Source: Octopus vulgaris (lineage: Eukaryota). From it: a stretch of DNA of 64,000 nt. The DNA lies in NCBI GenBank assembly GCA_951406725.2, contig OX597836.1:18724001-18788000 (forward strand), in the 5' to 3' direction. A program made the translations under genes and the position numbers. The first letter of the stretch is position 1; each line of letters starts with the position of its first letter. This document shows, one piece after another, positions 3,594-58,345 of the stretch. The notes under the pieces are model-generated. The model was not told the origin of the DNA and made no database searches. It worked only from the letters and a program-made list of their open reading frames with translations.

Positions 3594-3754
3594 GATGCGT
3601 CTGTATTTATCTTTGAGAAACGTGTTGCCGACAAACTGCACAAGCCACGGCGTCGAGAAACAGTTGCAGAAATACTGCGAAAGGAGGTGCACCAACTGCA
3701 AAGAATAAAGCATCCCAAAATTCTGCAAGTGTTCCATACTCTGGAAGAATGCCA
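3594..3754 (+). CDS. SCYL2: Internal exon of a SCY1-like protein 2 (SCYL2/CVAK104-like) pseudokinase gene; phase 0 acceptor, phase 2 donor
   Basis: Branch-like ACTCAT at ~3546, a long polypyrimidine tract, TAG|G at 3593/3594 and CA|GTGAGT at 3754/3755. Translates DASVFIFEKRVADKLHKPRRRETVAEILRKEVHQLQRIKHPKILQVFHTLEEC, matching the recalled SCYL2 beta3-alphaC-beta4 segment (VAVFVFDKK...GVQQLTRLRHPRLLTVQHPLEES). May be a paralog rather than the ortholog. Confidence 0.9.
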
Positions 3755-6188: not shown

Positions 6189-6603
<415 letters not shown>

Positions 6604-19984: not shown

Positions 19985-20630
19985 AATCGGAGAAGGTAGG
20001 ATTGTACAGTAATGCATACAGAGCTGCAATTATTCAACCACGAAATGCTTGTGTCAGTGAAAGAGAGAGATGGTAAGTCACTGAAGGTAGTTGAAAATTT
20101 CAAATACTTTGGTGCATGGACACAAAGTACTGAAAAAGACATTTATGGAGCTCATACCATAAATTGAGAAAGGTATGGAGTTCAAAGTTAGCAAGGAAAT
20201 TGAAAGTGAGGTTGTTTCTGGCATCAGTGGAGTCTGTTCTTCTATACGGCGCTGAAGCATGGATGCTCGCTAAAGCATTGAAGAAGCAGTTGGACAGTTG
20301 TTATACGAGGATGCTTAGAATGGCACTCAGTGTCTCCTGGAAGAGTCATACAACAAATGCCGACTCATACCAGGGACTACCAAAAGTAACAATGAAGATA
20401 CAGCATAGAAGGATGAGGCTGGTTGGACACTGCATCAGGCACACCAATGAAATTGCTAACAAGCTTAGTGTTCTGGCAACCAACAGAAGGAAGAACCAAG
20501 AGAGGAAGGAGGAAGACGACTTATATCGACAACTTGTTGGAGGATAATGGTATGGAAGGGGTACAGGAGCAGAGGATCATTATGTGGAAACAGTCTTGGG
20601 GCGTCCTGGGGGAGATCTAGATGAGATGAT
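19985..20630 (+). mobile_element. RTE-clade LINE 3' fragment, frameshifted
   Basis: LKVVENFKYFG, VESVLLYGAEAW, LDSCYTRMLRMALSVSWK, RRMRLVGHCIRH; ends in GATGA-type repeats. Confidence 0.88.
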
Positions 20631-21839: not shown

Positions 21840-22712
21840 CCCGAGGTCGACTTTACCTTTCATCTTTTCGAGGTTGATAAATTAAGTACCAGTTACCCAC
21901 TGGGGTCGATATAATCGACTTAATCCTTTTGTCTGTCCTTGTTTGTCCTCTCTGTGTTTAGCCCCTTGTGGGTAGTAAAGAAATAGGTATCTCATCTACC
22001 GCTACGTTCTGAGTTCAAATTCCGCCGAGGTCGACTTTGCCTTTCACCCTTTCGGGGTCGATGAAATAAGTACCAGTTACGCACTGGGGTCGATATAACC
22101 GACTTAATCCGTTTGTCTGTCCGGTTTTGTCCTCTCTGTGTTTAGCCCCTTGTGGGTAGTAAAGAAATAGGTATCTCATCTACCGTTACGTTCTGAGTTC
22201 AAATTTCGCCGAGGTCAACTTTGCTTTTTACCCTTTCGAGGTCGATTAGATAAGTACCAGTTATGCACTGGGGTCGATGTAATCGACTTAATCCGTTTGT
22301 CTGTCCTTGTTTGTCCTCTCTGTGTTTAGCCCCTTGTTGGTAGCAAATAAATAGGTATTTCGTCTACCGCTCAGTTCTGAGTTCAAATTCCGCGAGGTCG
22401 ACTTTGCTTTTCACCCTTTCGGGGTCGATGAAATAAGTACCAGTTACGCACTGGGGTCGATATAATCGACTTAATCCGTTTGTCTGTCCTTGTTTGTCCT
22501 CTCTGTGTTTAGCCCCTTGTTGGTAGCAAAGAAATAGGTATTTCGTCTACCGCTACGTTCTGAGTTCAAATTTCGCCGAGGTCGACTTTGCCTTTCACCC
22601 TTTCGGCGTCGATGAAATAAGAACCAGATATGCACCGGGGTCGATATAATCGACTTACCCACTTCCACAAACTTTGCAGGCCTTGTACCTTCACTAGAAA
22701 GGATTATTATTA
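21840..22712 (+). mobile_element. SINE family 1 concatemer: 4 tail-B units (first 5'-truncated) plus a terminal tail-A-like unit
   Basis: Junctions AAATA|GGTAT at 21986, 22170, 22354 and 22537 (period 183-184). Confidence 0.92.
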
Positions 22713-24006: not shown

Positions 24007-25218
24007 TGTTTCTTTATTAGCCACACAGGGCTGCACACAGATAGAACAAATTACAAGGTAGAGCTTTTCTTTTGAAGGTTTAAAAAAAAAAAAAAAAAAA
24101 AAAAAAGGAAGGGGGAGTTTCGATCAAAAGGGATCGTAAAAGGAGAGAAAGAGGACAAAAAAAGGGGGGTTAAAAAAAAGGGGGAGAGGAAAAAAAAAAA
24201 AAAAATTGATCAATAGGGATCGTTATCACAGAAATGTCAATATGAAGTGTAAAGGGGAGGACAGGTGAGGTTTACCCGTGGAAAGAAAAGCCTACGGAAA
24301 AGACCACGGTAACCTCGGTCAATGAAGTCACATTTTATATTTCTTTTTTTTTTTTTTTTTGCAAATAAGCAACTCTCTGTTTTCGATTTCTGGGTTCATA
24401 GGACTATGCTCAAGGTGGCTTCGTCATTCATACGTGCCATTCTTGCTACATTCACCCATCTTTTTTAAAACATTCGCTAGACAAAACTTGCCTCTCTACT
24501 CTCACTTTCCTTTTCAAGTGGTACTTGAAGAAGTTGATGAGAGATTGACCAGAGAGGAAAGTGTTTGTCTCCAATCCTTTCAGACGCGTCCACCAGATAC
24601 ATTCCTTCGCCATAGCCACAAGGATGATGAAAATAGCTCTTCCTTCCCGTTTGAAGGAAGGAGGCGTGACAATATTGACGATAGACTCAGCTGATAAACC
24701 GACTCGTCCCACACGTGACAGCAGTTGTTCGACATAAGCCCACAGGTCGGAAATTGTTGGACACTGAACGAGTGCGTGCAGAACGGTTTCGTCGCTCTGA
24801 CCGCATCTCGGGCAGGTCGGCCCCGTGTTTCTCGAGCCGTGTCTGTAGAGCTTATCCCGAACGGGTAGCGCTTCTCGGTAGCACTGCCAGGCCAGGGATC
24901 TCTGGAAGTTGTCCATGGGCCCTGGCCCGAAAGTCGTCCTGAACAGGCGGGTCAGGTACTCCTCGTCGACGTCCAGGTTCGCCCCGAGCTCGTCGTCGTA
25001 CCTCCCTCCACTAAACCCCTATAGAATGCTTTGGTTGTGTTGAAGTCACTTAAGGTCGACCCAGGACGGCAGAGTTGCTTGAGAGCAACGCGACACTCGC
25101 GGTGCCATTCGCCCTTCCTCGGCCTCTTTTGATCCACGACTGCAGTTCGGTCATGGAGACGAGCTGCGGGAAAGCGTGCCTCACAAACGGCGACCACACC
25201 TGTTCACCGTCGTCTAGA
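24007..25218 (-). mobile_element. L1/Tx1-clade LINE, 5'-truncated (ORF2 C-terminal CCHC zinc finger plus 3'UTR), within (GATA)n
   Basis: AWQCYREALPVRDKL...CPRCGQSDETVLHALVQC...LW...IWWTR (zf-RVT type). The 3' end AATAAAGAAACA is joined directly to (TATC)n. Confidence 0.9.
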
Positions 25219-26842: not shown

Positions 26843-27650
26843 ACAGGGTACGTATGGTATTTGAGGACATACTTTTATGGGGTCATTTTTGCTTATACTG
26901 TATGGTCTTCGTTTCAGAAAATAATAATGGCAGACACTCAGCTTACTCAAGAAATGAAGAGGCATGTTGTTATTGTGGTCATAAAGGCTGAGCATAGCGA
27001 TTTAGAAATATCTCGATTTTGAAAAGTTGCCAGATCTTTCGTCTACAAAGTTTGTAAGAAGCTAGAGACTGAAGATGGAAGCGTGTCACCAGAATCTGTA
27101 TCTTCATTACCCACAAGGGGCTAAACATAGAGAGGACAAACAAGGACAGACAAACGGATTAAGTCGATTACATCGACCTCCGTGCGAAGCAGGTACTTTA
27201 TTTATCGACCCTGAAAGGATGAAAGACAAAGTCGACCTCGACGGAATTTGAACTCACAACGTAACGGCAGACGAAATACCTATTTCTTTACTACCCGCAA
27301 GAGGCTAAACACAGAAGGGACAAACAAGGACAGAGAAACGGATTAAGTCGATTACATCGACCCCAGTGCGTAACTGGTACTTAATTTATCGACCCCGAAA
27401 GGATGAAAGGCAAAGTGGACCTCGGCGGAATTTGAACTCAGAACGTAACGGCAGACGAAATACGGCTACGCATTTCGCCCTGCGTGCTAACGGTTCTGTC
27501 AGCGTGTCACCAGAATCAAAGCATAAAAAGTATTCTAAAGGCTCTGAAATCACCCGAACACTTGAATTTATCTAGTAAGTTCAACTGAACCATTGAATAC
27601 AAACCGAGGAAGTCCATAAGGTCAGTTGCCAAGATCTCCATCTGTCAGAG
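26843..27650 (+). mobile_element. Tc1/mariner-superfamily transposon 5' relic (transposase HTH region) interrupted by a SINE
   Basis: TA-CAGGGT terminus-like start; MADTQLTQEMKRHVV...DLEISRF*KVARSFVYKV...; after the SINE, RTLEFI...PRKSIRSVAK-DLHLSE. Confidence 0.65.
27097..27503 (-). mobile_element. SINE family 1 dimer (head + 2 tail-B units) with 17-bp TSD
   Basis: AGCGTGTCACCAGAATC at 27080-27096 and 27501-27517; internal junction GACGAAATACC|TATTTCTTT at ~27280. Confidence 0.92.
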
Positions 27651-29079: not shown

Positions 29080-30470
29080 AAATGCATAGCGGTATTTTGT
29101 CCACCTACTTATGTTCTGAGTTCAAATTTCACCGAGGTCACTTTGCTTTTCATTCTTTTGGGGGTCGATAAAATAAATACAAGCCAAGTACTGTGGTCGA
29201 TGGAGTAAGCTAGATGACCCTCACCCACAATATCAGATCTTGTGTCGAGAATCGTTAGCATACTGGGAAAAATGCATTTCGTTTGTCTATGTTCTGAGTT
29301 CAAATTGCACCGAGGTCACTTTGCCTTTCATTCTTTTGGGGGTCGATAAAATAAATACAAGCCAAGTACTGTGGTCGATGGAGTAAGCTAGATGACCCTC
29401 ACCCACAATATCAGATCTTGTGTCGAGAATCGTTAGCATACTGGGAAAAATGCATTTCGTTTGTCTATGTTCTGAGTTCAAATTTCACCGAGGTCACTTT
29501 GCTTTTCATTCTTTTGGGGGTCGATAAAATAAATACAAGCCAAGTACTGTGGTCGATGGAGTAAGCTAGATGACCCTCACCCACAATATCAGATCTTGTG
29601 TCGAGAATCGTTAGCATACTGGGAAAAATGCATTTCGTTTGTCTATGTTCTGAGTTCAAATTTCACCGAGGTCACTTTGCTTTTCATTCTTTTGGGGGTC
29701 GATAAAATAAATACAAGCCAAGTACTGTGGTCGATGGAGTAAGCTAGATGACCCTCACCCACAATATCAGATCTTGTGTCGAGAATCGTTAGCATACTGG
29801 GAAAAATGCATTTCGTTTGTCTATGTTCTGAGTTCAAATTGCACCGAGGTCACTTTGCCTTTCATTCTTTTGGGGGTCGATAAAATAAATACAAGCCAAG
29901 TACTGTGGTCGATGGAGTAAGCTAGATGACCCTCACCCACAATATCAGATCTTGTGTCGAGAATCGTTAGCATACTGGGAAAAATGCATTTCGTTTGTCT
30001 ATGTTCTGAGTTCAAATTGCACCGAGGTCACTTTGCCTTTCATTCTTTTGGGGGTCGATAAAATAAATACAAGCCAAGTACTGTGGTCGATGGAGTAAGC
30101 TAGATGACCCTCACCCACAATATCAGATTTTGTGCCAAGAATCGTTAGCATACTGGGAAAAATGCATTTCGTTTGTCTATGTTCTGAGTTCAAATTGCAC
30201 CGAGGTCACTTTGCTTTTCATTCTTTTGGGGGTCGATAAAATAAATACAAGCCAAGTACTGAGGTCGATGGAGTCAGCTAGACGACCCTCACCCAGAATA
30301 TATCAGATCTTGTGCCAAGAATTGTTAGCATACTGGGAAAAATGCATTTCGTTTGTCTTTACGTTCTAGATACAAATCCTGCCGAGGTCGAGTTGGACAC
30401 TGGGGTTTATGCAATTGACTTACCTGCCACCAAACCTGCTGGCCTTGTGCCAAAATTTGAAACCATTACT
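29080..30470 (+). repeat. SINE-derived 178-bp tandem repeat: ~7 near-identical units plus a terminal diverged SINE end
   Basis: Exact 178-bp period (repeated ORFs at 29109, 29287, 29465, 29643, 29821 and 29999). The unit is a diverged family 1 core and A-tail fused to the next head. Confidence 0.95.
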
Positions 30471-32330: not shown

Positions 32331-33115
32331 GGCGGAGAGCTGGCAGAAACGTTAGCACGCCGGACGAAGTGCTTAGCGGTATTTCGTCCGCCGCTGCGTT
32401 CTGAGTTCAAATTCCGCCGAGGTCGACTTTGCCTTTCATCCTTTCAGAGTCGATAAATTAAGTACCAGTTACGCACTGGGGTCGATGTAATCGACTTAAT
32501 CCGTTTGCCTGTCCTTGATTGTCCCCTCCTGTGTTTAGCCCCTTATGGGTAGTAAAGAAATAGGTATTTCGTCTGTCGTTACGTTCTGAGTTCAAATTCC
32601 GCCGAGGTCGACTTTACCTTTCATCCTTTCGGGGGTCGATAAATTAAGTACCAGTTACGCACTGGGGTCGATGTAATCGACTTAATCCGTGTGTCTGTCC
32701 TTGTTTGTTTCCTCTGTGTTTAGCCCCTTGTGGATAGTAAAGAAATAGGTATTTCGGCTGCCGTTACGTCCTGAGTTCAAATTCCGCCGAGGTCGACTTT
32801 GCCTTTCATCCTTTCGGAGTCGATAAATTAAGTACCAGTTGCGCACTGGGGTCGATGTAATCGACTTAATACCTTTGTCTGTCCTTGTTTGTCCTCTCTG
32901 TGTTTAGCCCCTTGTGGGTAATAAAGATATAGGTATTTCGTCGGCCGCTATGTTCTGAGTTCAAATTCCGCTGAGGTCGACTTTGCCTGTCATCCTTTCG
33001 GGGTCGATAAATTAAGTACCAGTTACGCACTGGAGTCGATGTAATCGACTTAATCCGTTTGCCTGTCCTTGTTTGTCCTCTCTACGTTTAGCCCCTTGTG
33101 GGTAGTAAAGAAATA
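32331..33115 (+). mobile_element. SINE family 1 concatemer: head + 4 tail-B units
   Basis: GGTATTT at 32378, 32563, 32748, 32932 and 33116 (period 184-185). Confidence 0.95.
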
Positions 33116-33711
33116 GGTATTTATTATTAAATGTGGTGGAGGAGATACTGATGGTAGGTCGATGTTGGTGACGATGGTATTGCAGGGTGTAGGAGTGGTA
33201 ATGATGGTGATGATACTGATGGGATGGCGATGGTAGAGATAATGGTAGTGGTGGTGGTGGTGGTAGTTGTGGAGGGGTAATGCTGATGTTTGTGATGGTG
33301 GCAGTGTTGGTGATGGTGAGGATGGTAGTAGTGGTTCTGCTGCTGATAGAATGATTTTAGTAGTGCTGAATCTGTGTTGAAGCAGGTGATGTGGTGGGGG
33401 GTGGTGATTGTAGTGGTAGTGGTACTAGTGGTGGTCCTGGTGGTGGTAGTAGTGCTAGCGGAAAGGTTAATTCTGGTGATGGAAATGGTGGTGGTGGTGG
33501 TGGTGGTGGTGGTGGTGGTGGTAGTGGTGGTAGTCGTCGTTCTAGTTCATAATGACAACAACGTCTTGGGTTTTTAGTGGAAGATGTTAAGATGTGGTGA
33601 AAAGACCAAAAATTTGTGGTGGTTGTGGTGGTGATGGTGGTGGTGGTGGTGGTGGTGGTGGTGGTGGCGGCGGCGGCGGCGGTAGCGGGAGTGTGATAGT
33701 GTTGATGTTCT

Positions 33712-36028: not shown

Positions 36029-37269
36029 GAAGAGGGAGGCCGTGGTCTTTTGCAACTGGCAATAACAATGAAGATTGCTACAATTGGCCTAGACACCTAC
36101 CTGAAAAACTCTGGATGTTAAAACTTGTCTCAAAACATGAAAACAAGAAAGCATCATACTCAGTCACAAAACAGGCAAAGGAATATCTAAGTGAATTGCG
36201 AATACAACCAATTTCGGAATTAGAGATAGATATACAAGAAACAAGCACAGAAAAAGCTAGGCGCATGAAAACCCGTGCCAAAACTGCGGCCTTAGATATT
36301 CTGAATAATAAATGGCAAGAAAAACCTCTCTATGGCAAATACCCAAAGAGAGCGAATAATGCAGATATCGACAAAGCCCTGACCCATCAATGGCTAATGG
36401 CCTCTGGCTTAAAATCTGAAACAGAGGGGTTTATCATAGCAGCTCAAGATCAATGCCTACCAACAAGAAACTACCAGGCCAACATATTAAAGAACAGCAG
36501 TAGCCCAACATGTCGTGTATGCCGACAACAAAATGAAACCATTGACCATGTTGTCTCCAAATGCAGTCTTCTAGCGCCTACAGAGTACCTCAGTAGGCAT
36601 GATAGAGCTGCACAATATATTCACTGGGTAATTTGCAAAAACCTGGATTTGCCCCATGAAAAAAACTGGTGGGAACACAATCCACCTCCTGTGCTAGAAA
36701 ATTACCACATCTCACTCCTCTGGAACTTCACCATTCAAACTGACAGGAAGATAGATGCAAATAGGCCAGACATTATATTGAAAGACTTCAGACAAAGAAC
36801 ATGTCTCCTCATTGATATGACTGTCCCAATCGATATAAACGTATCTGTCAAGACCTACCAAAAACTGAGCAAATATAAAGATCTTGAAATAGAAATCAGC
36901 AAAATGTGGAAGCTGAAGACTAAAACAATACCTGTTGTCATAGGTGCCCTGGGAATGATAGCGAAAGGGACTGATTGCTACCTAACTCAGATACCAGGAA
37001 ACCCCAAAATGGCAGAAATTCAAAAGATAGTGCTCATGGGAACTGCTCATATCCTACGCAAAATACTCTCTATGTAATCCCAAGGTTTAAAACAAACTTT
37101 TTTTTTTTAATTAATTTATTTATTTATTTTTTTATGTATTAGACATTCACTAGTACAACACCATAAAAAAAAAAAATATATGGCACAGAACTTCTAACCT
37201 GTTGTCTTTTGAGGTCTCTGGGTGAGACTTGGAGCCAACTTGTACAGACATAAAGCAAAGTCAAACATA

Positions 37270-43888: not shown

Positions 43889-43950
<62 letters not shown>

Positions 43951-43987
43951 GTATGTATATATATATGTATATATATATATATATATA

Positions 43988-44193
43988 TTCAAAATGTGAC
44001 CGCGTGTGTACCGTTGGCGATTTATTTCCCTCCGTCTTCCTTTCTCTGGATCTTTCCTTTTCCTATGTTTCTGACGAAGAGCTCCGCTCGAAACGTTAAG
44101 CCCTCCTTCTTCCCTTCCTTCATGAGCGTCCAATAATACTATATTTGTTCCACGTCCTCGCGTTGTTTTCTCTTTGTGTTTTCATGTTTGGAT

Positions 44194-44197
<4 letters not shown>
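43988..44197 (+). mobile_element. 210-bp non-coding Penelope-like/retrozyme element in (TA)n
   Basis: (TA)n on both flanks; homologue at 48658-48886 and a 3' fragment at ~47372-47445; contains a minimal hammerhead. Confidence 0.75.
44067..44101 (+). ncRNA. Minimal type I hammerhead ribozyme
   Basis: GTTT-CTGACGA-A-GAGC-TCC-GCTC-GAAAC-GTT-AAGC: intact core, 4-bp stem II, ACGT palindromic stem III, 4-bp stem I. Confidence 0.8.
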
Positions 44198-44272
<75 letters not shown>

Positions 44273-44363
44273 CATGGCATTTTTTGTTTTCTTTTGGGGC
44301 TAGTATTGTGCATCCACTAATTGTATGTATAACTGTTTCACGTGATTATCATTATTACGAACG

Positions 44364-44572
44364 AGGCGAGCTGGCAAAATCGTAAGCACACCGAAGAAAA
44401 TCCTTTGCGGGATTTCGTCCGTCTTTACGTTGTTAATTCCAAATGCCGCCGAGGTCGACTTTGCTTTCATACTTTCGTAGTCGATAAAATAATTATCAGC
44501 TAAATACTGGGATCAATGTAATTGACGTACCCCTTCACTCGAAATTGCTGGCTTTGTACCAAAATTTGAAAC

Positions 44573-44575
<3 letters not shown>
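44364..44575 (+). mobile_element. SINE family 1, tail type A, followed by an (ATC/ATT)n expansion
   Basis: GGCGAGCTGGCAAAATCG head, core, CCAAAATTTGAAACC tail. Confidence 0.85.
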
Positions 44576-44614
<39 letters not shown>

Positions 44615-44636
44615 TATTATTATTATTATGATTATG

Positions 44637-44716
<80 letters not shown>

Positions 44717-44784
44717 CATTACTACTACTACTACTACCATTATTATTATTATTATGATTATGATTATTATTACTATTATTATTA

Positions 44785-44828
<44 letters not shown>

Positions 44829-44900
44829 AATATTATTATTATTGTTATCATTATTATTATTACTACTACTACCACTATTATTATTATTATTATGATTGTA

Positions 44901-44959
<59 letters not shown>

Positions 44960-46425
44960 CATCATCGAGCTAGCTGAATCGTTAGCACACAGGGCAAAAT
45001 GCTTAGCGGTATTTCGTCCATCTTTACTCCCAAATCTAATAAGATTGGAGGTGAGACAAATGAATCAATGTTCTTATGTGTGAGTAACCATGTGTGCATG
45101 CGTATATTTTAGATCCTATGTGTGTAGTATGTACGTGCGTGCATGCGCGTATATATATGTATATACGTATTTGTAACATGCATTTTTGTTTTGTTTTGCT
45201 TCTTTTTATAAAATTCACTCGGCCAATATCGTCCAGGTGTCTATGGCAGATTTTAATATGGTGCGAATTGGTTCCATGTTTGAAATATTGGTTAACTTTC
45301 GCCCAAGGGAACGAAGATGCAGTGCCAAAAACCGACGTTATTTTAGCTCGGAAGTAAAATGATTGACTGCTGCAAAGGTACAGAGAGATTTAATAAATAA
45401 CTTCACCAGCCGACCAATAGCTGATCCGATGTGATTGGTGAGTGGCGTTGAGTGATGCAGGTAGACAATGAACAAAAGGGTAAAGAGAAGACAAAATGGC
45501 CGATCCTTGTTCACGATGCAAGATTTTCTAAAATATAATATTAGTCAGAGACCAGCATCTCCTTTTTCCAATTCTCAAAGCTAATCACCGACTGGTCTTC
45601 ATTATCACATCGTAATATCTTCTCAATCAACCCTCACATCATATTGTCCTCTATATTATTCTACCTGTTTATCTATTTAGCGGACTCACTACCTATTTTT
45701 CTTTTATCTCTCAACGAATCTACTAACTATCTATCTATCTATTTACCTATCTGTCTGTCTATCTATCTCTCCATCTATCTTATCTATCTACTTTTTTTTT
45801 AATCTATCTACATTATATATATATATATCTACCTATCTAATCTATCTATTTGTATCATATATCTTTTGCCACCTTCCTATCTAAACAGCTTTCTATATTT
45901 AGACATAACTATCTATATACCTTTTACCATTATCTCCTTCTCTCTGTCTCTTTCTCTCTCTCTCTCATTCTCCTTCTCTCCCGCTCTCTCTCTCTTTTTC
46001 TCGCACTTTCTCTCTCTTTCTCTCTCTCACTCACTCAAACACTTGCACCACTACAATCACGCCTGCTCATTCATTCCACTTCCAACACTCTACCTGCAGA
46101 AGAGATCTGGAGATGTCAGAAATGGAGGGATAACTAGATATTAAAATCTGAAGAGAAAACTGTCATTCTTCAGTTTTTTCTTTAAGATACTTATGTAAAA
46201 TCCTTAAGGATAGAAGTAGAGGATGGTCCTTGTCATTAAGTATGAAGATATTATTATTCCATTGAATACTGCGTGTAGAATTCAAATACATACATATATA
46301 CACGCAGACTAAATATTTGATGTTATGAAAGCATGCATAAATGTATGTAGGCATGCATGCATATATGGTGTATGTATATGTGTGTGTATTTGTATGTGTG
46401 TACTATATGCAAGTATATATCTATG

Positions 46426-46715
46426 TCACGTGATCACGTGACCGACCAGACCATCAGATGTTGCTACACATCGCTGGTCACAATGCGTTCGCATTGTTTT
46501 AGCCTTCGAATGACGCCACCCCGCTGGCTAAGCGAGCAGGCCAACAGAAGAAAGAGTGAGAGAAATAGTGGTGAAGGAGTAGAGCAGGGATCACCACCCC
46601 CTGCCGGAGCCTCGCGGAGCTTTTAGGTGTTTTCGCTCAGTAAACACACACAATCGAAACCGCGATCCTACGACCGCGAGTCCGCTGCCCTAACCACTGG
46701 GCCATTGCTCCTCCA
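46426..46715 (-). mobile_element. SINE family 3, tail type X
   Basis: Homologous to 6288-6568. Confidence 0.85.
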
Positions 46716-46784
46716 CATATATGTCTATGTATGTATGTTTATATGTACGTATGCATGTATGTATAGCACATGCACCTTGCTATA

Positions 46785-46945
46785 CATTTTAGTCTCACGC
46801 ATTCTGTTGTCCGTCACTCTGACTAAGTGTCCACTCCATGTCAATTTGTACTGCAGTAGCAAAGCTTCAATACTGAAGCATTTCCTAACGAGACTATGAA
46901 AAACATGCATTTCGGAGTGGTTATCTCTTCTTCAGCTCCAAGAAA
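46785..46945 (-). mobile_element. Small RTE (BovB-like) fragment
   Basis: SIEALLLQYKLTWSGHLVRVTDNR resembles the RTE SIE.L....LRW.GH..RM.D.R motif. Confidence 0.65.
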
Positions 46946-46959
46946 CGGACACGATGCTC

Positions 46960-47150
46960 TGCGACTATGCTGGTGCACCGCCTTCAAGAATTTTAGTCGA
47001 ATGAATTAATACCAGTACATTTTTTTTTTATTTCTTTTAGCCTGGTACTTATACTACCAGTCTCTTTTCCGAACCGCTAAGTTACGAGGACTTAAACACA
47101 TCAACACTGGCTGTCAAGAGGTGGTGTAGGACAAACACAGGCACAAAGAT
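46960..47150 (-). mobile_element. SINE family 2 3' part
   Basis: ATGCTGGTGCACCGCCTT...CCGCTAAGTTACG...TGTCAAG. Confidence 0.7.
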
Positions 47151-47267
47151 ACACACACACACACATACATATATACATACATACACATACACACATACAC
47201 ACACACACTCACACACACATACATACATACATACATACATACACACACACACATACACATGGAGACA

Positions 47268-47303
<36 letters not shown>

Positions 47304-47458
47304 TACATACATACATACATACATACATACATACATACATACATACATACATACATACATACATACATAACGTTACATGTACCACGTCCACACGTTGTTG
47401 TTTTTTCTGTGTTAATTCTTCGTTTTTGGGGGGACTTAGTATAAATATATATATATAT

Positions 47459-47629
47459 ATACAAAATTTAAAGGACTGACCACTAAAAGTGGACGGTCAA
47501 TATGCTAGATATAGACGTCAAAATCGCTATTTTCCACGAATGTGTTCTTCGTGGAAAATAGCGATTTTGACGTCTATATCTAGCATATTGACCGTCCACT
47601 TTTAGTGGTCAGTCCTTTAAATTTTGTAT
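47459..47629. repeat. Perfect palindrome, 82-bp arms, 7-nt loop
   Basis: 47459-47540 is the reverse complement of 47548-47629; loop TGTGTTC. Confidence 0.95.
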
Positions 47630-47714
47630 GTAAAAAACATTTTAATCTTCGGATTTTTTTTAATATGCTAGGCCACTGGTTTTAATTGATTAATATCAAT
47701 TTCTACCATTATTC

Positions 47715-47762
<48 letters not shown>

Positions 47763-47831
47763 ATGCCGTTATCTCCCTATTTGTTCATATATCTCTTTAA
47801 CTGCTTCTCAAATATAGAAATCTATTTATCA

Positions 47832-47867
<36 letters not shown>

Positions 47868-48318
47868 GTTTGTCACTCTTCATCTCTTGTAATAATCTTG
47901 CTCTCTTCCTCTCTCTCCCTCTCTTCAACTCTCTCTCTTTATCGTTCTCCCTCATACTCTCTCCACTATTCTCTTGTCTTACTTGTCTCTCCTCCAACCT
48001 TTTACACTGACGAATAGAAGTGAAGACGTTACAAGTCGATAACAAAGGAGCAGGTATTAAGACAGTAACAGCGTAGTCACAGCTGTCATCTTAAATTTAG
48101 CTTATAAGATACTTACAGAAAATCCTTAAGGATGGCAGGAACTTGTTGTCAGCAAGTATCAGCACACACTTACAAGCACACACATGCACACATACATGTG
48201 CTTATACATGCATGTAATATGCATAAATATTCATGCATGTGTAAGCAAATATAAGTAAATATATACATATGCACAACCGTACATATATACATATATATAC
48301 ATATATATACATATATAC

Positions 48319-48365
<47 letters not shown>

Positions 48366-48520
48366 CACATACATATATATACATATATATATATATAAAT
48401 ATATATATATATACATATATATACATATATATATACGTATATATATATATATAAGTATATATATATATAAGTAAATATATACATATGCACGACCGTACAT
48501 ATATATATGTACATACATAT

Positions 48521-48637
<117 letters not shown>

Positions 48638-48657
48638 TTATACACACATACACATAT

Positions 48658-48879
48658 TTCAAAATGTAACAACATGTGGATGGTTGGCGATTTCTTTCCC
48701 TCTGTCTTCCTTTTTTCTTGGATTTTTCCTCTGTCTCCTGTTTCTGAAGAAGAGCTTTCATCCAAACGTAAAACTACCTTTCTTTCTTTCCCTGAGCGTC
48801 TGCTAATACTTTGCATGTACCACATCCTCGCGTTGTTGTCTTTTTCTTGTGTTTTTCTTGGAGTTTTTTGAGGGGAGGG

Positions 48880-48886
<7 letters not shown>
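48658..48886 (+). mobile_element. Second, decayed copy of the hammerhead element
   Basis: GTTT-CTGAAGA-A-GAGC-TTT-CATC-CAAAC-GTA-AAAC at 48740-48774 (G12 lost); (TA)n flanks. Confidence 0.7.
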
Positions 48887-48911
<25 letters not shown>

Positions 48912-49202
48912 ATAGAAATATTAAAACATATATATATATATTACCGGTACTAAAATGTCCTCATGATAAGATTATTTTAGCATTATCTACCTTGTCTTAT
49001 TTTCCTTATACCTACATACACACACACACACACACACGTATATATATATATCTATATATATCATCATCATCATCATCATCATTATTGTTTTTTTTTTTGT
49101 TTAGTTCCGTGGCGTCACAAGATCCCATATTTACCATATGCTCCTTCTTTCCTCATGTTCTGATATGGCTGCTAGAAACTTCGGGTGGACGTGATCAGCT
49201 TC

Positions 49203-49281
<79 letters not shown>

Positions 49282-50042: not shown

Positions 50043-50364
50043 CAGGTTGTAAAGGAACACACGAGTTGATATGTTAGGAGACTTGGGTTGTCTTTTGCTC
50101 TTTATGATGGTGTGCGTTTGGAAGATTAAATTCATTCTGTGGTCCCTTTTTTTTTTAGGTGAATGTTCTGGAGGATAGTGTCGGGTATTTGAAAACTATG
50201 GAAATAATTTTTAAAAAAACATTTCATTTAATCTTTCCACAATTGAATTGTTTTTCATGCTTTACTCTAAGTTGAAAAAGTCGCAAGACTGAAACCGGTA
50301 CTAAAATGTTCTTCATGATAAGTTTATTTTAGCATTATCTACCTTGTCTTGTTTTCCTTATACA

Positions 50365-50398
<34 letters not shown>

Positions 50399-50842
50399 AT
50401 CATCATCATCATCACCATCATCATCATGGCTTTTTTCTATTTAGTTCCGTAGCGTCATAAGACCCCATATCTAGCATATGCTCCTTCTTTCCTCATGGTC
50501 TAATATGGCTGCTAGAAACTTCGGATGGACGTGATCAGCTTCATACCTTTATGAAAGAGATTAATCACGTGACAAGGCTTTATGCAGCCATACTAACCCT
50601 TTATCTTTCCTGTGTATCACGTGATAGACAGCACGTATTTCCCTTGCGTCCATCCATTAAACATGATATACATGGCTTTTTTTTTTTTCTTCACCCACCA
50701 GAGAAAAGCTTTATATTATTCAGAACATACGAGAGTGGTGAGCGGGCAGAATCGTTAGCACGCCGAACAAAATACTTAACGGCATTTCGTCCTTCTTTAA
50801 GTTCTGAGTTCGAAATTTAACCGAGGTAGACTTTTTTTTTTG

Positions 50843-56675: not shown

Positions 56676-58345
56676 TGGCGGCAACCCGGCAGAATTGTTG
56701 GCACGCCGGGCAAAAATGCTTAGGAGCATTTTGTCTGCCTTTACTTCTGAGTTCGAATGCAGACGAGATCAACTTTACCTTTTAACTATTCGAGGTCGAT
56801 ATAATAAGTAACAATTGAACACTGAAGTCGATCACATTGAATTAAACTCAAATGTCTAGCGGCGTTTCGTCTGTCGCTACGTTCAACTTTGCCTTTCATC
56901 CTTTCGGGGTCGATTAAATAAGTACCAGTTACGCACTGGGGTCGATATAATCGACTTAATCCGTTTGTCTGTCCTTGCTTGTCCTCTCTGTGTTTAGTCC
57001 CTTGTTAGTAATAAAAAAAATAGGTATTTCGTCTGTCGCTACGTTCTGACTTATTGAAGAATCAAAAGCATTTAATCGCGATCTTGCAATGGTATTTGTA
57101 GACTTTTCTAAAGCGTTCGATTCTGTAGATAGGTGACAAGATGTTTGAAATCCTTAAGCTCTATGGGATACCAGACAAAATCATTTCTGCCATCAAGGTC
57201 CTCTACACAGATACGTCTTCAACCATCTTAACCCCTGACGGAGAAACATCATCTTTCTCAATCAAAGCCGGAATACTGCAGGGAGACACACTCGCCCCAT
57301 TTCTTTTCATCATTGTTGTTGATTATGTGCTGCGTATGTCAGTTTATACCATCTCTGGCAAGGGCTTTGAAATAAAACCAAGAAGAAGTTCCAGACACTC
57401 AGCTGAGTACTTGACAGACACTGACTTTGCTGACGACATCGCTCTTATCAGTGATTCTCTCTCCAATGCACAGTCTCTTTTACAATCTCTTGAACAAGCC
57501 TCAAATTGTGTAGGTCTTTACCTCAATGAGGCCAAAACTGAATACATAAATAAGTGCCTGTCCAACAGTGATTGCATCATCCATACTCTCAACAATGCGC
57601 CCTTAAATATGGTTTCTGATTATAAATATCTTGGGTCATACATATCATCATCTGGAAAAGACTTTCTAACTAGAAAGGGTATGGCCTGGTCAGCCTGTAA
57701 TGACATGCATAAGATCTGGTCATCAAATCTAAGTAGAGACTTCAAACTTGAAATCTTCAAAGCCACAGTCGAACCAATTCTACTATATGGCTCAGAAACC
57801 TGGACGTTATCAAAGAAGCTTGAGAGGCGGTTGGATGGAACCTACACTCGCCTCCTTATGGGAGCTCAAAATCTCTCGTGGAAGCGCCATCCAACCAAAA
57901 TGCAAATATATGGGAAACTATCACCTGTGTCATCTCTTGTGAAAGGTAGGAGAGTCCAGTTTGCTGGACATTGTTGTAGAGCTGAAAAAGAAGTAATTTC
58001 TACTCTTCTCCTCTGGAAGCCATCTACTCGCAATAGCAGAGGGCGCACACTCTCCTACCCTGATGTAATCTCCAGGGATACAGGCATCCAGCAACAGGAC
58101 CTCCGTAATGCCATGATGGACCGTGAAGTCTGGCGTAGCATGGTAAATTCCATTGTCTCGACCACGGTCGAACAATGATGAATGATGATGACGTTCTGAG
58201 TTCAAATTCCGCCGAGGTCGACTTTACCTTTCATTGTTTCGGGGTCGATAAGTCGATAAGTACCAGTTGGACTCTGAGGTCGATGTAATTGACTATACCC
58301 CCTCCTACCAACTTTCTGGCCTTCTGCCAAAATTTGAAATCAATA
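56676..58345 (+). mobile_element. SINE family 1 multimer split by an RTE insertion
   Basis: Diverged head at 56676, tail-B unit ending ~57021, GGTATTTC junction; resumes at 58191 and ends in tail A. Confidence 0.8.
57050..58190 (+). mobile_element. RTE-clade LINE, 5'-truncated RT and C-terminus, (ATG)n tail, 9-bp TSD
   Basis: FVDFSKAFDSV, GILQGDTLAPFLF, DFADDIAL, YKYLGS, LLYGSETW, FAGHC. TSD ACGTTCTGA at 57041-57049 and 58191-58199. Confidence 0.96.

Follow-up and report, generated by a model that had tools for sequence, protein, structure and literature searches.

Minimal hammerhead ribozymes number thousands per genome in metazoans, mostly as single dispersed motifs that have been ascribed to truncated Penelope-like elements (PLEs) (PMC4209133). 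According to that survey, the metazoan PLE motif has an extra base between positions 9 and 10.1, a G10.1-C11.1 pair and a palindrome at 15.2-16.2, is inactive as a monomer and shows low activity as a dimer. The pLTRs of Adineta Penelope measure 181-218 bp and also occur as solo pLTRs (Arkhipova et al. 2013, PMC3846280). The protein of anole Poseidon cuts AT-rich DNA, and reverse transcription starts internally (Frangieh et al. 2024, PMC11167929); by subtraction from the published data, the start lies 85-92 nt past the ribozyme cut. In this element, the only PLE reconstituted in vitro, ribozyme-dead RNA was inserted equally well, the ribozyme requires its protein, and no RNA-seq reads end at the cut. 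Naiad and Hydra elements of Octopus have been described as preferring (TA)n (Craig et al. 2021, PMC8557442). PLEs occupy 6.83% of the Octopus vulgaris genome, in 190 families of which 31 were recently active (Bonar et al. 2026, PMC13282606); this amounts to about 4 kb per 64 kb on average, and a PLE terminal module is therefore expected in a stretch of that length. What defines non-LTR retrozymes is a tandem arrangement of units that each carry a hammerhead (PMC7229834; bioRxiv 10.64898/2026.07.22.740005), together with circular RNAs.

We analysed a 64,000-nucleotide stretch of O. vulgaris DNA (the window), in which a first-pass annotation had described a hammerhead-bearing repeat family. The 210-bp unit, copy 1, was said to hold an intact minimal hammerhead with an ACGU palindromic stem III, and we located all core parts (Table 1). 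Our descriptor demanded both boxes, a stem II of at least 4 bp, a perfect palindrome, UH and a stem I of at least 4 bp; it was composed post hoc from published features, with the copy 1 site already known. That site was its sole match on both strands of the window, against 0.003 matches per window expected by chance (300 block-wise dinucleotide shuffles). A relaxed version, with no stem I and a stem II of at least 3 bp, matched 0.107 times per shuffled window. A hammerhead-like string on the minus strand at 46935-46905 (CUGAAGA-A ... GAAA-UGCAU, with the palindrome AUGCAU) is unrelated, has G at the cleavage position and fails the descriptor; it may be a CpG-decayed PLE motif or a chance occurrence.

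Table 1 Features of the hammerhead-bearing repeat, its copies, flanks and host exon (positions in the window)
Feature	Position	Strand	Basis or detail
Copy 1: 210-bp pLTR-like unit, intact minimal hammerhead	43988-44197	+	motif descriptor, self-comparison
Minimal type I hammerhead, copy 1	44067-44101	+	descriptor; consensus from PMC4209133 supplement
Stem I, copy 1	44067-70/44098-101	+	4 bp including one G-U
CUGACGA box, copy 1	44071-77	+	C3=44071
Extra A before stem II, copy 1	44078	+	
Stem II, copy 1	GAGC 44079-82 / UCC / GCUC 44086-89	+	4/4 pairs, 3-nt loop
GAAA box, copy 1	44090-93	+	
ACGU palindrome, copy 1	44093-96	+	
Predicted cleavage base, copy 1	after U44097	+	H17=U44097
Block common to all three copies, 3' part	44146-44178	+	alignment of copies
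(TA)n/(TATG)n microsatellite, 5' flank of copy 1	43893-43987	.	
(TA)n microsatellite, 3' flank of copy 1	44198-44240	.	
5'-truncated 3' fragment	about 47368-47440	+	nearer copy 2 than copy 1
Flanks of the fragment	either side of 47368-47440		(TACA)n left, (AT)n right
Long (TA)n-rich microsatellite	48283-48636	.	21 nt 5' of copy 2
Copy 2: decayed full-length unit, 228 nt	48658-48885	+	self-comparison with copy 1
(TA)n, 3' flank of copy 2	48888-48911	.	
Only host exon found: SCY1-like protein 2, Octopus	3594-3754	+	protein match; AG and GT ends

The copy 1 motif has the properties of PLE minimal hammerheads. CUGACGA-A corresponds to CUGANGA plus one extra base before stem II; stem II is closed by G10.1-C11.1, as this class requires; and GAAA-C-G-U-U reads as GAAAN, a palindromic 15.2-16.2 and NUH. 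Stem I is 4 bp long in both full copies, inside the 3-5 bp expected for the class. Copy 1 thus agrees at every core position with the PMC4209133 consensus (U-rich, CUGANGAH, G..C, GAAAN, palindrome, NUH), and C-G-U-U/C is the commonest arrangement in the alignment of that paper. The likeness covers the core boxes, the extra base, the G10.1-C11.1 pair, the loopless palindromic stem III and the short stem I, and extends to the U-rich 5' flank and the mostly single, dispersed copies. Unlike most rows of that alignment, copy 1 has a short, 4-bp stem II and a 3' flank that is C/U-rich rather than AU-rich, features in which only a few rows are similar. The searched supplement contains no cephalopod example ("octopus" gave 0 matches). 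The pairing probability of stem II is 0.82 when the motif is folded in isolation and 0.55 within the whole unit; the fold of the 210-nt unit is no stronger than that of shuffles (z=0.12). A search of the window against Rfam gave no match that reached the gathering score, and none of the 23 matches at E<=10 for 43900-44300 belonged to a hammerhead family; this probably reflects models missing stemless variants, and we do not count it against the motif.

The first-pass annotation had also reported a decayed second copy with the same ends and a 3' fragment near 47372, and both are present. Copy 2 aligns with copy 1 at 74.6% identity over 201 columns (E 6e-31); their first ten bases are identical and both end in GGATTAA, which in copy 2 is preceded by an expansion of about 18 nt. 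The core of copy 2 (C3=48744) has lost G12, which is C at 48763, and two of the four stem II pairs; it retains ACGU and a GUA site (H17=A48770), and its stem I consists of four Watson-Crick pairs, with A-U where copy 1 has G-U. Copy 2 appears to be the older of the two, because it has 5 CpG against 13 in copy 1 and the K2P distance between them is 0.26. The first-pass annotation had made conservation of the core boxes over the flanks a test of its reading; core bases match at 10/11 positions, compared with 140/184 elsewhere, a difference that is not significant (p=0.23, from two copies only). The fragment (47370-47434) scores E 0.16 against copy 1 alone, but a profile built from both copies detects it at E 2e-6. 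Against copy 2 it scored 74, equalled in 0/6310 background windows, and against copy 1 it scored 46, equalled in 1/6310, so that it sides with copy 2 and there are two apparent subfamilies. With its truncated 5' end and the same 3' end, it is the one example in the window of a form expected of a pLTR or truncated PLE. The block common to all three copies is a candidate recognition or initiation region for a PLE protein. No fourth copy was found in the window.

Several observations concern the arrangement of these copies and their neighbourhood. All three lie inside 4.9 kb (43988-48885), for which P=0.017 with three uniform points in a post hoc calculation; a review states that PLEs insert near earlier copies (PMC6765202). 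Local duplication of copies 1 and 2 was rejected, as their flanks are not homologous. The notion that they are the two pLTRs of one old element was also discarded: they are 25% diverged, seemingly belong to different subfamilies and enclose no ORF. At their starts (43988-43999 and 48658-48669) both share the same short opening frame followed by a stop, TGA in one and TAA in the other, which could be fortuitous or a remnant of the final codons of a parent ORF. Directly after the fragment, with TA on both sides, is a perfect foldback at 47459-47629 with 82-bp arms and a 7-nt loop, which looks like a MITE or a collapsed TIR transposon. Just 3' of copy 2, a local duplication (48944-49212 and 50295-50552) has about 89% identity, its halves 1340 nt apart.

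We next consider the flanks. Copy 1 is set exactly between two (TA)n tracts, and (TA)n is found at the 3' junction of all three copies, with gaps of 0, 2 and 4 nt; random 210-nt placements reach such a 3' junction in 0.9% of cases. Among 33 other repeat intervals (of 50 listed, leaving out those that were short, overlapping or part of the element itself), six have TA on one side and none on both. The claim that all copies are TA-flanked therefore stands for the 3' side in 3/3 copies. On the 5' side it is exact only for copy 1: copy 2 is separated from its (TA)n by 21 nt of degenerate CA/TA, and the fragment, which follows (TACA)n, has none. More than one family in the window adjoins TA microsatellites: another interspersed repeat, at 1102-1201, 6298-6559 and related intervals, starts directly after (TA)n. 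The earlier interpretation is partly supported: the repeat is dispersed and retroelement-like, targets (TA)n and carries a minimal hammerhead of the PLE type.

The dimensions of the unit fit a PLE terminus. At about 200 nt it resembles the pLTRs and solo pLTRs of EN+ PLEs (PMC3846280, PMC11167929), and the hammerhead is placed near the 3' end, with 100 nt from cut to 3' end in copy 1 (of 210 nt) and 115 nt in copy 2 (of 228 nt). For anole Poseidon, the 3' end lies about 90 nt past the cut at AT-rich targets; for copy 1, it lies at 100 nt, at (TA)n. In contrast to the pLTRs of EN+ PLEs, neither an ORF nor a tandem partner was seen with the Octopus copies, nor was there any inverted copy, tail variant or target-site duplication. 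The described Hydra-1_Obim and Naiad_Ovul share the host genus and the (TA)n preference, and Hydra elements also carry a hammerhead near the 3' end (PMC8557442): by subtraction, the six new Hydra motifs begin 104-183 nt from the 3' end, compared with about 150 nt in copy 1. However, Hydra hammerheads have another sequence and a stem III of 3-4 bp with a short loop (PMC8557442, File S2), which copy 1 lacks. Naiads, by the same source, have no canonical hammerhead, whereas copy 1 has one. By elimination, a Neptune or Penelope/Poseidon parent appears more likely.

Our searches for a coding partner covered the copy translations and the window and found neither a partner protein nor an ORF. The Pfam scan took in the host exon, 81 of the 85 segments that fall within 38-56 kb and, outside that range, 109 of the 125 segments with a length of at least 60 aa, but left out 141 shorter ones. 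GIY-YIG was not found; the only matches were of LINE type, away from the copies. None of the 81 segments in 38-56 kb passed the cut-off, with one sub-threshold match, so that no RT or GIY-YIG was detected next to any copy, and no ORF with both lies between pLTRs as it would in an autonomous PLE. Microsatellites and other repeats fill the 4.5 kb between copies 1 and 2, where Pfam matched nothing at the cut-off. Protein searches with the translated element (three of six frames) yielded no candidate in one case, 28 candidates with none at E<=0.01 in a second, and four weak, unnamed matches (E 3e-4 to 8e-4) in a third. Because no partner protein and no adjoining RT or GIY-YIG were found, the link to PLEs draws on motif and architecture, not on homology. 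We found no string from the element in the consensus files published for Naiad and Hydra of Octopus, in which line breaks could mask matches, and the unit had no match in phage or plasmid records. One exact pattern match among bacterial and archaeal genomes was GC-rich with flanks dissimilar by eye and was treated as chance. The open-access literature contains no description of this Octopus hammerhead; Repbase, Dfam or the Zenodo library may already hold it, possibly labelled as Penelope or as an unknown repeat.

We conclude, with a probability of roughly 80%, that the unit is the pLTR or 3' end module of a (TA)n-targeting PLE lineage of Octopus, present here as isolated, ORF-less and neutrally decaying copies. 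The 210-base repeat is most likely an ordinary leftover of a known and abundant PLE group. By analogy with described PLEs, an autonomous element elsewhere would nick TA-rich DNA with its GIY-YIG endonuclease, and its reverse transcriptase would start some 100 nt to the 3' side of the hammerhead cut, thereby fixing the 3' end, and copy the RNA 3' to 5'. The product would be either the whole module of about 210 nt, as in copies 1 and 2 (solo pLTRs, or short derivatives that were mobilised), or a shorter stub truncated at its 5' end, such as the fragment. Lacking a stem III of its own, the ribozyme would act, if at all, as a dimer in a tandem precursor RNA, probably with help from a protein. PLE origin and target-primed insertion are both suggested by these features rather than observed directly. 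Counting against this reading, the two copies, 75% identical, start at the same 5' base, an outcome not expected of plain random 5' truncation; it fits a fixed-length solo pLTR, a truncation hot spot at an AT-rich junction or a non-autonomous family.

The last of these options overlaps with the pLTR reading, of which it is a sub-case: a SINE-like, non-autonomous PLE derivative with fixed ends, copied alone by the RT of a partner, which amounts to the family proposed in the first-pass annotation minus the ends set by the ribozyme. We regard it as a serious but somewhat less than even prospect. It would account for the same 5' start in copies 0.26 substitutions apart and for the two apparent subfamilies; non-autonomous PLE derivatives are known in Chlamydomonas, and retrozyme monomers have been described in vertebrates (bioRxiv 10.64898/2026.07.22.740005). 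However, there are two full copies only, and no promoter of its own is evident, with neither Pol III boxes nor a tRNA head and with T4+ runs inside. Fixed-length and solo pLTRs give the same picture (PMC3846280), and the earlier assignment to a non-autonomous family is not secured, as an autonomous PLE could leave copies of this appearance in the form of solo pLTRs or 3' stubs. A Pol III SINE carrying a hammerhead, as in Schistosoma, was rejected: there is no tRNA and no A or B box (sought by pattern), and T4+ runs precede the ribozyme in both copies.

A non-LTR retrozyme is an unlikely source of the copies, which would then be dispersed monomers, released when ribozymes cut a tandem master array and reverse-transcribed from the resulting circles. 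The Octopus unit is short and non-coding like such retrozymes, carries a type I hammerhead, is PLE-related and occurs as dispersed monomers; 210 nt is within their size range, similar monomers are dispersed in Xenopus, and retrozymes derive from pLTRs (bioRxiv 10.64898/2026.07.22.740005). Unlike retrozymes, the Octopus copies are monomers only, with no tandem arrangement anywhere in the window, and the motif is of the minimal PLE type, not a canonical type I hammerhead with loop contacts (PMC7229834). The absence of structure beyond that of shuffles also speaks against this origin, as do the ends, which lie off the cut site: a circle would permute them, yet two copies share both. The description of the family as ribozyme-processed is not supported by its ends, none of which maps to the cut site, and ribozyme-dead RNA of anole Poseidon was inserted equally well (PMC11167929). 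The ends of copy 1 are 110 nt 5' and 100 nt 3' of it, and the 5' end of the fragment is about 35-40 nt past it.

Still less probable is a fixed-ended, promoterless and monomeric cephalopod PLE parasite that would be copied out of the RNA of host introns, passing between (UA)n tracts. The self-complementary microsatellite would provide its primer site, its 5' joint and a tether for dimerisation. Scattered copies would thereby pair into hammerhead dimers with no need of tandem arrays and would occasionally cut host pre-mRNA, here with the core of copy 1 cutting copy 2 after 48770.

The pairing of copies on one pre-mRNA, as the first-pass annotation proposed, bears on this idea and on the more far-fetched one that the intronic copies are a working dimer that cuts the host pre-mRNA and affects the SCY1-like 2 gene. 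Each core of a double hammerhead cleaves the strand of its partner. As the core of copy 2 is dead, a pair of copies 1 and 2 could cut only after 48770 and not after 44097. Both copies are on the sense strand and have ACGU, and the 5' strand of copy 1 with the 3' strand of copy 2 would form four Watson-Crick pairs beside the GUA site. By nearest-neighbour energies, which are without tertiary terms, the catalytic heterodimer is predicted at -2.9 kcal/mol, whereas a non-catalytic duplex reaches -19.9 and the two monomers -7.7 and -3.1 kcal/mol; the catalytic homodimer is at -7.3 and its competing fold at -24.7 kcal/mol. The catalytic fold is thus predicted to be energetically unfavourable, and the pairing proposal is unlikely. 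The copies are also 4.7 kb apart, PLE minimal hammerheads cleave poorly even as adjacent dimers (PMC4209133), 8/9 Xenopus dimers were uncleaved (bioRxiv 10.64898/2026.07.22.740005) and the anole ribozyme depends on its protein (PMC11167929). Copy 2 is decaying with no sign of constraint, and we consider a working dimer very improbable. The lone intronic copies are most likely silent passengers, inactive in host RNA.

Equally improbable is a chance hammerhead-like motif in an unrelated MITE or SINE: the Rfam result and the non-significant excess of core matches between the two copies would allow it, but the low chance expectation for the descriptor, the joint presence of extra base, G-C closing pair and palindrome, the survival of stem I in both copies through a G-U / A-U change and the lack of Pol III boxes all argue against it.

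The placement of the copies in an intron follows from the single exon in Table 1, which is 100% identical over 53 aa to a 768-aa O. vulgaris kinase-domain protein whose relatives carry the name SCY1-like protein 2. Because tblastn found no further exon of that protein in the window, 3755-64000 is probably part of a single SCY1-like 2 intron that exceeds 60 kb. The earlier assignment of the copies to the host sense strand is supported to the extent that this exon sets the direction of the gene; the agreement of all three is uninformative, because its chance is 1/8. The foldback beside the fragment would yield long dsRNA in the intron. The window is rich in microsatellites (179 tandem-repeat rows, 32% low complexity). 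A 178-184-bp repeat is arrayed in tandem at 21841-22657, 27101-27463, 29110-30358 and 32378-33122 and is also widely dispersed, with up to 29 overlapping self-matches; it is probably an abundant octopus SINE-like repeat. Non-LTR retrotransposon remnants at 20134-20475, 24455-25018, 36034-37074 and 57129-58175 carry DUF6451, zf-RVT twice and RVT_1 in a 349-aa open stretch.

The kind of element described here is well known, whereas for the Octopus hammerhead itself we found no description in the open-access literature. As it stands, the locus contributes one cephalopod case to a class of motif that animal genomes are known to contain by the thousand, and it could help to classify one of the 190 PLE families of Octopus. 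Its importance would grow if a sharp 5' end recurred in thousands of copies, which would indicate a SINE-like PLE parasite without tandem arrays, or if real cuts occurred in host pre-mRNA. A family with both intact and dead intronic cores would allow tests of core selection and strand bias.
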